DNA from: a virus
Length of the DNA: 14,104 nucleotides
Direction: 5' to 3' (one strand)
UHGV virus genome: UHGV-0325397
The notes under the pieces are model-generated. The model saw only the letters and a program-made list of their open reading frames with translations. It searched no databases and was not told the origin of the DNA. How positions within the stretch are numbered: position 1 is the first letter of the stretch; each line of letters opens with the position of its first letter. The translations under genes and the position numbers were made by a program. Shown in pieces: positions 7,116 to 12,627 of the stretch.

Positions 7116-7394
7116 GTGGAACTTACAAGTACTCGCAAGAAAGCGAATGCAATTACAAGCAACATCCTGAATCGAATTGCTGTACGTGGTCAGCGAAAGG
7201 TTGCCGACGCGTTAGGGATTAATGAATCGCAAATTTCGCGATGGAAAGACAGCTTCATCCCCAAAATGGGAATGCTTCTGGCTGTTCTTGAATGGGGTGT
7301 TGAAGACGAGGAGTTGGCGGAACTGGCTAAGAAAGTAGCCAGAATGCTGACAAAAGAAAAAGCCCCGAAGAACGGCGAATTCTTCGAGGCCTGA
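7116..7394 (+). CDS. cII: CII-like transcriptional activator (93 aa from the GTG start)
   Basis: ESQISRWKDSFIPKMGMLLAVLEWGV matches lambda CII (KSQISRWKRDWIPKFSMLLAVLEWGV, from memory); RBS context TAAGGAAATACTTACAT is as in lambda but followed by GTG rather than ATG; the track's 7029 start would read through nutR and tR1. Confidence 0.8.
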   Translation: MELTSTRKKANAITSNILNRIAVRGQRKVADALGINESQISRWKDSFIPKMGMLLAVLEWGVEDEELAELAKKVARMLTKEKAPKNGEFFEA

Positions 7395-7428
7395 TGTAGA
7401 AAGACTGGATCAATCCACAGGAGTAATT

Positions 7429-8073
7429 ATGACATACGAAAATGACAAATTCCAGGTTCTGAAGAGCATGAAGGTGCCAGATGATTTTAAATCAAATGGC
7501 TTTGTTTATGTGCTTTCGAATGAGTGCATGCCAGGAATTTATAAGATTGGGATGACTAAGCATTCACCAGAAGTTAGGGCTAAAGAAATTTCAGCCTCTA
7601 CTGGCGTTCCTAAGCCATTTAAGGTGATAGCAGCCTTTCATTCAAATAATCCCGCATCAGATGAAAAACTCATTCATAAAGCCTTTGCAAAAGAGAGGCT
7701 TAGTGATAATCGAGAGTTTTTCAAGCTTGAAGATAATGAGCTTTCTGAATCTCTAAATGAAATAAGGGCGCTGGTTGGCCCTGAAAGAAATGGCGAGACG
7801 GCAGAATACGCAATTTACGACTCATTCATTTCTTTTCGCCATGAAAATGAGCTTGATCTTAATGAGGAGCTTATAGAGCAAGGTCTGGGTAGTGTAGTTG
7901 GTCATCTTCCTGCGGTGAAAAATTTCCTTATTCGCGCCGGAATTGATTACGCGAAGCAACTGATAAGCAAATATAACTCATCGATAGTTATTAATACAGA
8001 TGGCAGTGTGGTGATGGTTAAGTCTCTTGAAGCCCAATGCTTTGATGCGGAGGTTGGAAATGAGCCTGGCTGA
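7429..8073 (+). CDS. GIY-YIG/T5orf172-like domain protein (214 aa), AT-rich accessory insert between cII and O; family assignment tentative
   Basis: N-terminal GFVYVLSNECMPGIYKIGMTKHSPEVRAKEI fits the T5orf172/GIY-YIG nuclease-like pattern as I remember it; visibly AT-rich versus its flanks; AGGAG 5 nt before the ATG; 3' end overlaps the O start by 14 nt. Confidence 0.5.
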   Translation: MTYENDKFQVLKSMKVPDDFKSNGFVYVLSNECMPGIYKIGMTKHSPEVRAKEISASTGVPKPFKVIAAFHSNNPASDEKLIHKAFAKERLSDNREFFKLEDNELSESLNEIRALVGPERNGETAEYAIYDSFISFRHENELDLNEELIEQGLGSVVGHLPAVKNFLIRAGIDYAKQLISKYNSSIVINTDGSVVMVKSLEAQCFDAEVGNEPG

Positions 8074-8902
8074 AGTATTTTACCTGCCGAAGAGTGAACC
8101 TGTTGAACAGGAGCGAAGAGTGGCTGATATCGATGATGGTTACACCAGATTCGCTAACGAGCTGCTGGAAGCTATCGCAAGTGCCGATTTAACCGCTCGC
8201 CAGTTGAAAGTTATGCTGGCCTACGTCCGGAAAACATATGGGTTCAATAAGAAAACAGATCGAATAGCCGATGAGCAAATTGCTCAGTTAACAGGACTGT
8301 CAAGGCAGAATGTTAACAAGGCTAAAAAAGAACTGATTTCAATGAATTGCCTGTTTATGGATGGAAATCAAATCGGTGTAAACAGGGAGGTATCTGCGTG
8401 GCTATTCAGCAAGTGTCTCCAAGTTAGCAACTTTGTCTCGAAGTTAGAGACAAAAAATGTCTCCAAATTAGAGACACTCAATGTCTCGAAGTTAGAGACA
8501 CACAAAAGACATTCTTTAAAGACAAAAGAAAATATTAATAAACCCCCTATATCCCCCAAAAAAGTTTCTCAGAAGTTCGACCCGCTAGAAACAGAGTTGC
8601 CTGATTGGTTATCAGCAGAAACATGGTTGTCGTGGGTTACCTATCGCAAGGAGATAGGTAAGTCGATCAAGTCTAAGCAAAGTGTCACTCAGGCTATCAA
8701 CGTTCTAAGCAGAAGTCTGGAGAAGGGATATACACCTGAAGAAATTATAAACCAGAGCATAGCCAGTGGTTGGCAGGGGATTTTTGAGCCCAAGACTCCA
8801 AAGGGGAAATCTCAACCGAGGCCGCAGCATCGAGCTATGCAGGAAAACTTTGCCACCAAAGATTACGGACAAACTGAAATGCCTTCATGGGCGCAGGAGT
8901 GA
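8060..8902 (+). CDS. O: Replication initiator O (origin-binding protein) containing the origin iterons
   Basis: From ATG 8060 (GGAGG upstream): ERRVADIDDGYTRF...LLEA...ADLTARQLKV...RKTYGFNK..DRI matches the lambda O N-terminal domain (from memory); the iterons translate as repeated VSKLET. Confidence 0.8.
   Translation: MSLAEVFYLPKSEPVEQERRVADIDDGYTRFANELLEAIASADLTARQLKVMLAYVRKTYGFNKKTDRIADEQIAQLTGLSRQNVNKAKKELISMNCLFMDGNQIGVNREVSAWLFSKCLQVSNFVSKLETKNVSKLETLNVSKLETHKRHSLKTKENINKPPISPKKVSQKFDPLETELPDWLSAETWLSWVTYRKEIGKSIKSKQSVTQAINVLSRSLEKGYTPEEIINQSIASGWQGIFEPKTPKGKSQPRPQHRAMQENFATKDYGQTEMPSWAQE
8414..8500. repeat. Origin iterons: four about 19 bp inverted-repeat units (TGTCTC-N7-GAGACA) inside the O gene, followed by an AT-rich stretch
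   Basis: Units at 8414-8432 (imperfect), 8434-8452, 8458-8476, 8482-8500, spaced 20-24 bp; AT-rich region 8501-8545 follows. Confidence 0.6.
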
Positions 8903-11816: not shown

Positions 11817-12106
11817 TGGCTAACCTACGCAAAGAAGCGCGCAACAGAGAATGCCAGGTACGTATTTACGGCGTATGCAATGGTAATCCTGAAACTACAG
11901 TTCTGGCACATTACCGGATGGCTGGAATTTGCGGAACGGGAATGAAGCCTGACGACCTGATCGGCGCATGGGCTTGTAGTGCGTGTCACGATGAAATCGA
12001 CCGACGCACCCATAACCTCGACAACAAAGACGCCAGACTTTACCACCTCGAAGGTGTGATCAGGACGCAGGCGATACTGCTGAAGGAGGGAAAGATTAAG
12101 CCATGA
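11816..12106 (+). CDS. YbcO-like (DUF1364) Cys-rich putative nuclease
   Basis: MANLRKEARNRECQVRIYGVCNGNPETTVLAH...CSACHDEIDRRTH resembles E. coli DLP12 YbcO as I remember it; start overlaps the previous stop (TAATG). Confidence 0.6.
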   Translation: MANLRKEARNRECQVRIYGVCNGNPETTVLAHYRMAGICGTGMKPDDLIGAWACSACHDEIDRRTHNLDNKDARLYHLEGVIRTQAILLKEGKIKP

Positions 12107-12627
12107 ACGGTAAAAGATATCCAACACAAAAAGAAATCAATGAATTGTATGAATATAATAGCGAAACAGGTTTGTTTATATACAAGAGAAGAGAAAGTGT
12201 AAGAGAGTGCTGGAATTCAACATATGCCGGTAAGATTGCTGGTTCTATAGATGAAAAAGGATACGTTCGTATATCTGTAAATAAAAAAGTTTGTCGAGCT
12301 CATAGAATCGCATGGATATCCTTTTATGGAAGTGAACCTGATGGGGAAATTGACCACATAAATGGAATTAAAAGCGATAACAGAATATGCAATTTGCGCG
12401 TTGTAGATGATAAACAGAACTCAAGGAACAGAAAAAAGCCTATTAATAATCGCTCTGGAGTAATTGGTGTTGCCTACTATAAGAAGAATAAAAAGTGGGG
12501 CGCATATATAAACAGTGATAATAAAAAGATATTTCTTGGATTATACGATGACATATCTCTAGCCGTTAATGCCAGAAAATTGGCGGAATCACGATTGGGC
12601 TATCACCATAATCATGGGAGAGGATAA
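12103..12627 (+). CDS. HNH endonuclease (free-standing, homing-type), AT-rich insert
   Basis: HNH-type motif CRAHRIAW...GEIDHINGIKSDNRICNLRVV; strongly AT-rich relative to neighbours; sits between ybcO-like and rusA; ATGA start overlap. Confidence 0.8.
   Translation: MNGKRYPTQKEINELYEYNSETGLFIYKRRESVRECWNSTYAGKIAGSIDEKGYVRISVNKKVCRAHRIAWISFYGSEPDGEIDHINGIKSDNRICNLRVVDDKQNSRNRKKPINNRSGVIGVAYYKKNKKWGAYINSDNKKIFLGLYDDISLAVNARKLAESRLGYHHNHGRG

Follow-up and report, generated by a model that had tools for sequence, protein, structure and literature searches.

What does a nuclease-like gene do at the junction of cII and O, within the early operon of a temperate lambdoid phage? The question is raised by positions 7429-8073 of the stretch of DNA analysed here, 14,104 nucleotides (nt) of the virus genome UHGV-0325397, which will be referred to as the window. 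The plus strand carries there an open reading frame (ORF) of 214 amino acids (aa) with an ATG start, coding for a GIY-YIG nuclease of the T5orf172 family. The preceding gene encodes CII (PF05269, E=1e-41), the following one a replication initiator of the lambda O type (PF04492, E=5e-36), and O is followed by the gene of a DnaC/IstB-like helicase loader. The explanation preferred here, with a confidence that stops somewhat short of even, is that the gene is a free-standing homing or interference endonuclease located where the immunity module (cI-cro-cII) meets the replication module (O and the helicase loader). It is preferred because an intact, optional gene of foreign composition here splits a conserved sequence of an essential gene, carries a donor flank and sits on a mosaic boundary.

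Replacement of the 5' end of O by the nuclease cassette

Phage N7 and six E. coli prophages served as unoccupied references. They carry the same O allele (~99% identical), and in them cII is directly followed by O. Alignment revealed that 670 nt of the window (7435-8104, plus strand) stand in for 42 nt of the unoccupied alleles (AATACAGC...AACTTTGCC, O codons 3-16), which encode the lambda-type MTNTAKILNFGRGNFA. On the left the common sequence ends at ...ACAGGAGT(C/A)ATTATGACA, and on the right it starts again at GAACAGGAGC.AAGAGTGGCTGATATCGATGATGG. The junctions were the same in all 33 occupied and 7 unoccupied loci compared, a set that took in 25 further copies from viral contigs. The sequence-only reading had pictured the ORF as wedged into the gap between cII and O. 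This picture has to be changed: the cassette replaced the 5' end of O and took over its start.

As judged from the alignment, the nuclease gene uses the ribosome binding site (RBS) and the ATGACA start that belong to O elsewhere. The RBS (AGGAG, 7419-7423) lies in a conserved cII-O linker, ACTGGATCAATCCACAGGAGT (7404-7428, plus strand), which is the sole left-flank sequence common to occupied loci with unrelated cII 3' ends; CAGGAGTAATTATG is also kept ahead of divergent family members. The 3' end of the cassette gives O a new Shine-Dalgarno (SD) sequence, a new ATG and the 15-residue N-terminus MSLAEVFYLPKSEPV. This predicted replacement start occupies 8049-8104 (plus strand) and consists of the SD sequence GGAGG at 8049-8053, the ATG at 8060 and 15 donor-type codons; over the first 16 residues of O (8060-8104) the sequence found in lambda and in the unoccupied alleles has given way to the donor type. 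ATG 8060 is the annotated O start in phage Bas106 and in RefSeq prophages, and no support was found for TTG 8027, to which the mechanical ORF list extends O. The 3' end of the nuclease ORF overlaps O by 14 nt (8060-8073), and both the ORF and this overlap agree with what had been read from the letters. The rest of the O gene (8105-8902, plus strand; PF04492) is ~99% identical to O of the unoccupied alleles.

Two related loci (L027 and L028) bear on the origin of the segment. Their nuclease genes are 82% and 70% identical in nucleotide sequence to that of the window, and they share the same O N-terminus (MSLAEV..YL.K.EPV) and the same 14-nt overlap. Whole O of these loci is 85-87% identical to the O gene of the window, whereas the latter, beyond the junction, is ~99% identical to O of N7. 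The simplest reading would be that an L027-like segment comprising the nuclease gene and 45 nt of the neighbouring O was joined to an N7-type O by recombination in two flanking conserved blocks. Divergent initiators found beside the nuclease also start with M.(T/L)AE(V/I)..(F/L)P. Separately, a 9-mer, ATGACAAAT, located at 7442-7450 (plus strand), out of frame and 13 nt inside the nuclease gene, is identical to the opening 9 nt of the lambda-type O ORF. The identity may be due to chance, or the 9-mer may have been left behind when the insertion first took place.

The nuclease gene was present in 19 of 5,426 complete E. coli genomes. The O allele of the window was found in 46, of which the same 19 carried the nuclease gene. 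Among 50,697 phage records one, Bas106 ("CurroJimenez"), contained it. As is typical of homing genes, presence and absence thus alternate at a single site in otherwise near-identical genomes, and the insertion in an essential gene disrupts conserved sequence (the replaced O codons). The 83-mer spanning the unoccupied site is conserved at 95% or more in 134 phage records, among them those of lambda, 434 and Stx phages. Comparison of relatives showed that the gene occurs in a minority of lambdoid phages, which is not the distribution of a housekeeping gene.

Nucleotide positions flanking the cassette were tightly associated with it. The single-nucleotide polymorphism (SNP) located 4 bases before the ATG (7425) was A in 32 of 33 occupied and C in 7 of 7 unoccupied loci. 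At +10 nt of the right flank G was found in 33 of 33 occupied and in 2 of 7 unoccupied loci, and apart from this position no fixed difference between the two states was detected in the right flank in O. Among occupied loci a drop in diversity was confined to the initial 150 nt of O (0.0040 vs 0.0083), and no graded co-conversion tract was seen beyond ~150 nt. Three unrelated cII 3'-end types were encountered, each on occupied and unoccupied alleles. In each of two prophage pairs (L021/L017 and L022/L018) the members agree in the alleles of cI and cro and over ~1 kb upstream, yet differ in occupancy. There is tight local linkage combined with frequent exchange on both sides of the cassette. The gene is accompanied by 45 nt of donor-type sequence at the O 5' end and by the SNPs at -4 and +10, a pattern to which ordinary recombination or loss of the cassette would also lead. 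T5orf172 genes are the main homing class of ICP1-like and other phages and lie at exchange boundaries by essential genes (PMC10448857); the occurrence of the three cII types in both states fits such a location.

The base composition of the gene is foreign. Its GC content is 0.406 compared with a mean of 0.463 for the window, which places it within the lowest 3.1% of 645-nt windows, and GC at third codon positions (GC3) is 0.358 compared with 0.47-0.61 for the neighbouring genes. The difference from the flanks noted earlier is therefore real, and the AT-richness is moderate. Together with the optional occurrence of the gene, it supports the suspected horizontal acquisition. A consensus scan, which may miss weak or alternative promoters, revealed no convincing sigma-70-like promoter upstream of or within the nuclease gene, and promoter-like sites were no more numerous than expected from shuffled sequence. 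Because no such promoter was found and translation is coupled to O, the gene is likely to be co-transcribed with the replication genes, as had been proposed for transcription from pR.

RefSeq labels the protein 'GIY-YIG nuclease family protein' in the 19 E. coli genomes, the identical protein of Bas106 (Bas106_0049) is annotated as hypothetical, the matching PHROGs families are of unknown function, and the NCBIfam search returned no family. No paper found in a literature search described a T5orf172 or GIY-YIG gene at the junction of cII and O in lambdoid phages, and the search brought up nothing about PDC-S57, a defence candidate whose profile the protein matches in part (see below). The nuclease class and the concept of homing genes are already known. 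New are the orphan second domain of the family, the capture of the O translation start and the invariable position before initiators in temperate phages.

A nuclease domain joined to an orphan C-terminal domain

Residues 24-112 (7498-7764, plus strand) matched PF10544 T5orf172 (E=1.4e-15, 58 bits against a cut-off of 20) and PF13455 MUG113 (E=7e-16, 59 bits against a cut-off of 22.3), confirming by profile search the nuclease-like pattern that had been recognized by eye in the N-terminal half. This part has the GIY-YIG alpha/beta fold, and the AlphaFold2 model of the protein was confident (predicted local distance difference test, pLDDT, 87.5; predicted template modelling score, pTM, 0.72). 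In an alignment of 37 sequences Y27 (in GFVY), Y38 (in YKIG), R50, E79, H83, R95 and E96 (in REFF) were invariant, and the C-terminal half was conserved too. By analogy with I-TevI and Odn, Y27, Y38, R50 and E96 are the predicted catalytic residues. That T5orf172 domains can be active sequence-directed nucleases is known from Odn, whose cleavage activity was abolished by the E180A substitution (PMC8263062).

Homologs of 211-245 aa were found across Enterobacterales in 52 clusters, and at least 538 matching stretches were detected in viral contigs. The ratio of nonsynonymous to synonymous substitution rates (dN/dS) relative to seven relatives lay between 0.08 and 0.26 in each half of the protein; synonymous sites were close to saturated. 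The two-domain protein is maintained under purifying selection.

The C-terminal domain (residues 113-214; 7765-8070, plus strand) is predicted to be composed of a helix, a strand, a helix, a long helix, a beta-hairpin and a helix. The earlier remark that these ~100 residues resemble nothing recognizable was borne out. A Pfam search with residues 113-214 returned nothing even at E<=10, PDB sequence searches with the family profile or the C-terminal profile gave nothing meaningful, and Foldseek found no significant match in the PDB. The protein sequence lacks a Cys motif of the type CxxC...CxC. When the C-terminal profile was compared with 1.84 billion representative proteins, 14 matches were obtained, all of which had the same two-domain layout or were fragments.

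In a distant subfamily (~36% identity; L010, L012, L013, L065-L114; P0029-P0040), whose genes precede those of YdaU-like or HTH_36/DnaT initiators, the proteins have acidic C-termini (...GIYGPxxP..DFDDAPF, SDDSDIPF, EVPF or VEF) that resemble DFDDDIPF, the tip of the single-stranded DNA-binding protein (SSB). Judging by this resemblance, the tails may mimic the SSB tip and bind SSB-interacting proteins. The window protein has no SSB-like acidic tail. One candidate, P0032, appeared to be a fusion of a T5orf172 C-terminus with O; it was discarded, since a frameshift in the gene call of a metagenomic contig seems the likelier explanation.

The position ahead of replication initiators and the competing explanations

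For ten family members, in 16 assembly loci, the nuclease gene was always found immediately 5' of a replication initiator gene. The upstream neighbour was CII or YdaT, and the downstream loader was of the lambda P or the DnaC type. The same arrangement was seen in 77 of 77 viral-contig loci with downstream sequence, where the next gene starts between -74 and +12 nt from the nuclease stop. The 77 downstream genes comprised 39 of the YdaU/RepA-like type (MARSRNIKPGFF...), 25 of the O type present in the window, 7 of the HTH_36+DnaT type and 6 other O-like or DnaD-like genes, all classes being annotated as replication initiators in Pfam or PHROGs. At least five initiator families adjoin members of the nuclease family, and in one instance (L063 and L064) nuclease genes that are 72% identical precede unrelated initiators. 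Distant homologs head the replication module also in Salmonella phage S107, Proteus phage Brookers and Burkholderia phage KL4. The KL4 homolog (L116, 3007-3405) is a 132-aa protein consisting of the T5orf172 domain only; it is annotated 'putative helicase' and its gene abuts that of replication protein O. Vibrio phage K303 was considered as a further case and rejected: its homolog combines T5orf172 with a weak P-loop match, and no initiator is evident next to it. In other coliphages the same slot holds unrelated ORFs of 48-53 aa, of the DUF2740/P22-orf48 and HK97-gp53 types.

If the gene is a homing or interference endonuclease, the following course of events can be envisaged. Early transcription from pR would cover it along with O and the loader, and it would be translated from the former O RBS and ATG, as sequence comparison indicates. 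The protein would cut the DNA of related phages or prophages lacking the cassette, at or near the conserved cII-O linker and the O 5' end. Its own copy would be protected, the target being split and 42 nt of it replaced. The break would then be repaired by recombination on the cassette-bearing template, either by the phage Rad52-type annealase and SSB or by host RecA, and the gene would be copied in with a short donor flank. The phage does encode its own recombination proteins, a Rad52-type annealase and an SSB, and the donor-type start of O, together with the cassette-linked SNPs at -4 and +10, would be the footprint of such repair. A single genomic position is kept, as predicted by allelic homing. 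A nuclease expressed from pR while the choice between lysis and lysogeny is being made would have to be highly specific, otherwise prospective lysogens would die. The gene may be purely selfish, or it may also benefit the phage by crippling co-infecting rivals (interference competition).

Several observations weigh against this explanation. Cleavage of the allele lacking the cassette, self-immunity and biased inheritance are all presumed steps. Gain and loss of the cassette are not separable by these data, and a recent sweep of the cassette was rejected: its nucleotide diversity (pi) of 0.0072 is about equal to the values of 0.0090 and 0.0088 obtained for O. The cassette is absent from many lambda/Stx-type O alleles having the identical 83-mer, and in E. 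coli it is always associated with one O allele. Since at least five unrelated initiator families are involved, no single target inside the initiator gene explains the family, and YdaU-like loci have an intact initiator N-terminus. The C-terminal domain shows no DNA-binding signature recognizable by Pfam or fold search, and it is an orphan never recombined onto other proteins, unlike the DNA-binding modules typical of homing endonucleases. The proteins of several distant members terminate in DFDDxPF or SDD.DIPF, which resembles the C-terminal tip of SSB. The KL4 form, which has the nuclease domain only, is hard to reconcile with a self-sufficient sequence-specific enzyme.

Some of these observations would be easier to understand if the protein were an accessory nuclease of the replication module working with the initiator or the origin, a possibility that is given clearly less credence than homing or interference. 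Its C-terminal domain would dock onto initiator, loader, replisome or SSB partners, and in the distant relatives the SSB-tail-like acidic terminus would do the docking. The enzyme might nick or cut its own origin-proximal DNA, for example triggering rolling-circle or recombination-dependent replication; alternatively, it might cut rival replicons that use the same machinery, an Odn-like outcome achieved by two separate proteins. An initiator gene adjoins the nuclease gene in all loci examined (the 16 loci, the 77 of 77 contig loci, S107, Brookers and KL4), across at least five initiator families and with loaders of both the lambda P and the DnaC type, and the two genes are coupled or overlapping (-74 to +12 nt). 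Such a role is also consistent with a family-specific C-terminal domain devoid of a DNA-binding signature, with the SSB-like DFDDxPF or SDD.DIPF ends of distant members, with the KL4 nuclease-only version beside O and with purifying selection on both domains, and Odn demonstrates that T5orf172 nucleases can be aimed at origins (PMC8263062). However, the gene is optional within one O allele (19 of 46 genomes) and so dispensable for replication, the docking partner would have to be common to unrelated initiators, and the C-terminal domain is unlike the O N-terminal domain. The positional constancy does not discriminate between accessory function and homing, because an allelic homing element in syntenic mosaic genomes would keep, and equally predicts, the same position. 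Rated marginally lower than the accessory role, and likewise doubtful, is the proposal that the gene does not code for a homing endonuclease of the classical sort but is the founding member of a replication-module-linked nuclease class, in which a C-terminal fold not seen before or, in relatives, an SSB-tail mimic couples the enzyme to initiator, loader or replisome. Such an enzyme would cut origin-proximal DNA of rival lambdoid phages or satellites dependent on the same host replication machinery, or its own DNA to switch the mode of replication, and would therefore explain the position ahead of at least five unrelated initiator families.

The remaining explanations are considerably less probable. 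Prophages often carry defence genes, and superinfection exclusion was among the functions offered by the sequence-only reading. The gene would then serve superinfection exclusion or anti-phage defence, protecting the lysogen as a single-gene nuclease similar to PDC-S57 or PD-Lambda-1. PADLOC matches to PDC-S57 (E=4.5e-29) and PD-Lambda-1 (E=4e-12) and the optional, AT-rich, moron-like character of the gene point in this direction. The matches are limited to the nuclease domain, though, and the gene lies between cII and O inside the pR operon, which is repressed in the lysogen; the scan detected no separate promoter for the gene, whose translation is coupled to that of O. Known lambdoid exclusion genes occupy repressor-independent or pRM/pL-proximal positions. 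Protection of a lysogen is thus unlikely, and among the offered functions homing or conflict between phages fits best. Slightly more unlikely still is an anti-defence or host-takeover factor that blunts host immunity, for example by masking DNA ends, or destroys a host or satellite element early in lytic growth. The position of the gene implies expression with the early replication genes, and there are precedents: phage homing endonucleases can weaken a break-sensing defence even without catalysis (bioRxiv 10.1101/2025.09.07.674715) and can amplify anti-defence loci (PMC13096335), and Odn destroys a satellite (PMC8263062). Yet no host or satellite target is suggested by the sequence, Pfam and PHROGs gave no match to known anti-defence families, and conservation of all catalytic residues argues against a purely DNA-masking role. 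Least probable, and by now very improbable, is a non-cutting DNA-binding regulator domesticated from a homing endonuclease, which might tune the expression of cII/oop or of the replication genes. CapR sets a precedent (PMC10448857; bioRxiv 10.1101/2020.11.28.402263), and the gene overlaps the pO/oop promoter region and alters its -35 element; against this, the catalytic Tyr, Arg and Glu do not vary, purifying selection on the protein is strong, and a DNA-binding domain is not recognizable. The anti-defence and regulator explanations are possible ones that have no specific support.

Relation to known systems and possible effects on replication control

The closest parallels to the proposed homing or interference endonuclease are the T5orf172 homing genes of ICP1-like, T5-like and Vibrio phages (Barth, Dunham and Seed 2023, PMC10448857), which encode the same Pfam nuclease domain. 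Like the gene of the window, they are free-standing, lie beside or inside essential genes at an exchange boundary and are optional among close relatives. They occupy many loci in lytic phages, whereas the family described here keeps to one locus in temperate lambdoid phages. Moreover, 87% of them have DNA-binding zinc-finger repeats (CapR, DUF723 or DUF4397), which are exchanged from gene to gene, and the window protein has no such zinc-finger domain; its never-shuffled C-terminal domain is a further point that sits poorly with homing. Odn (ICP1 Gp88, PMC8263062) is similar in having a T5orf172 nuclease with conserved catalytic Arg and Glu, in its link to initiators and origins, and in being a phage-encoded weapon in conflicts between genetic elements. 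Its targeting domain, however, is N-terminal and homologous to the RepA_N domain of the satellite initiator, in contrast to the C-terminal second domain of the window protein. A borrowed initiator domain of the Odn kind was rejected for O-type initiators, as the C-terminal profile, compared by hhalign with the N-terminal domains of O proteins, reached a probability of only 0.06.

With the Seg proteins of T-even phages and with I-TevI the protein shares an N-terminal GIY-YIG domain of ~100 aa followed by a C-terminal part of ~100 aa; the genes are likewise AT-rich and inserted between or into conserved genes, and co-conversion of flanks, seen with those genes, may have occurred here too. The protein differs in subfamily (T5orf172/MUG113, not PF01541) and in its temperate phage host, and its homing is a proposal. 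In the fold search the C-terminal domain was unlike the zinc-finger/minor-groove-helix/helix-turn-helix module of I-TevI. The likeness to PDC-S57 extends to the T5orf172 domain and to a similar length (the profile has 212 positions), but residues 21-113 alone align, to profile positions 3-94, and a full-length match fails. The match to PD-Lambda-1 covers only positions 354-450 of a profile of ~495 positions, and the ~350-aa N-terminal region of that protein has no equivalent in the 214-aa window protein. The PADLOC candidates come from a defence-island setting and the window gene from a repressed early phage operon. The 48-53-aa proteins encoded in the cII-O slot of other phages are optional as well, and are unrelated and without a nuclease domain.

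Lambdoid phages are the textbook example of modular mosaic genomes, and the origin of their sharp exchange boundaries is debated. An optional nuclease on the immunity/replication boundary is a concrete candidate driver of mosaicism, its footprints being the captured O translation start, the co-transferred donor O 5' end and the three cII types in both states. Breaks at the cII-O junction would promote exchange exactly at the mosaic boundary, whether the nuclease is selfish or not. To our knowledge, work on homing-type nucleases has dealt almost exclusively with lytic phages, and a temperate-phage family with an orphan second domain would widen the picture. The proposal is directly testable: Bas106, which encodes the identical protein, has been cultured and is in a public collection, and N7 and many prophages are natural counterparts lacking the cassette.

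Two regulatory features of O are rewritten by the cassette, the N-terminal 16 residues and the -35 element of oop. The predicted pO-like (oop) promoter lies on the minus strand at 7426-7454; its -10 element CATAAT (complement of 7426-7431) overlaps the ATG of the nuclease gene, and its -35 element TGGAAT (complement of 7449-7454) is inside the cassette. The unoccupied allele reads TTGAGT-17-CATAAT (9/12 matches) and the occupied one TGGAAT-17-CATAAT (8/12). The oop-like antisense terminator in the 3' end of cII (7360-7392, minus strand), a 14-pair stem followed by a T-run, is intact. An Rfam scan of the window at gathering thresholds gave no match, oop not being a curated family hit. The ATTATG start context, which is kept before every first gene of the replication module, may be fixed by the overlapping oop -10 element. 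The N-terminal residues of lambda O reportedly carry a ClpX recognition signal, and O stability may differ in cassette-bearing phages through the new N-terminus. Replication control could thus change through the oop -35 element or the O N-terminus even with a purely selfish nuclease.

Inside O, the origin iterons were identified by Tandem Repeats Finder as three 24-bp repeats at 8434-8505. They vary in copy number: the window has 3.0 copies, and the occupied prophage of E. coli ET776 (L026) has an extra one, its O being 891 nt long vs 843 nt. Initiators with unrelated N-terminal origin-binding domains have one of a few C-terminal tails (8850-8902 in the window; L003-L114), for example ENFATKDYGQTEMPSWAQE before DnaC-like loaders and ...NTDW..GV.. 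before lambda-P-type loaders; HWNSRE.WE..FL was also encountered. On this sequence pattern the initiator C-terminus appears to be paired modularly with the type of loader.

Genes upstream of initiators were inspected in other phages as well. In Gordonia phage Sahara, gp64 (L119, 1403-1801) is a 132-aa 'endonuclease' with a sub-threshold GIY-YIG match, and its gene overlaps that of a RepA-like initiator by 1 nt. HK639_53 gave no match and Bordetella IFTN9_55 a weak DUF968 match. Small nucleases directly 5' of initiators may recur well beyond lambdoid coliphages. In phrog_8130 (434 positions) the T5orf172 domain matches positions 181-257 and the N-domain of YdaU-like initiators positions 11-101, which suggests natural fusions of an initiator DNA-binding domain with T5orf172, the architecture of Odn, in phages. 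A tblastn survey of phage records found no initiator-T5orf172 fusion.

The SSB ORF of the phage (2478-2984, minus strand; PF00436) contains the canonical ...MDFDDDIPF followed by 15 more residues before the stop. The SSB tip normally must be a free C-terminus; the extension seen here therefore represents a modified tail or else a variant that arose by read-through or frameshift.

At 12103-12627 (plus strand), between YbcO/DUF1364 and RusA, the window contains another optional nuclease cassette. It encodes an HNH_3 protein (PF13392, E=1e-16) and has the lowest GC of any ORF in the window (0.349; GC3 0.286). Its flanks match in 996 E. coli genomes, where they are usually adjacent, and the gene is found in only 32. 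It looks like a classic free-standing HNH homing-endonuclease gene, and its presence in the same window indicates that this phage lineage hosts optional nuclease elements of such a kind.

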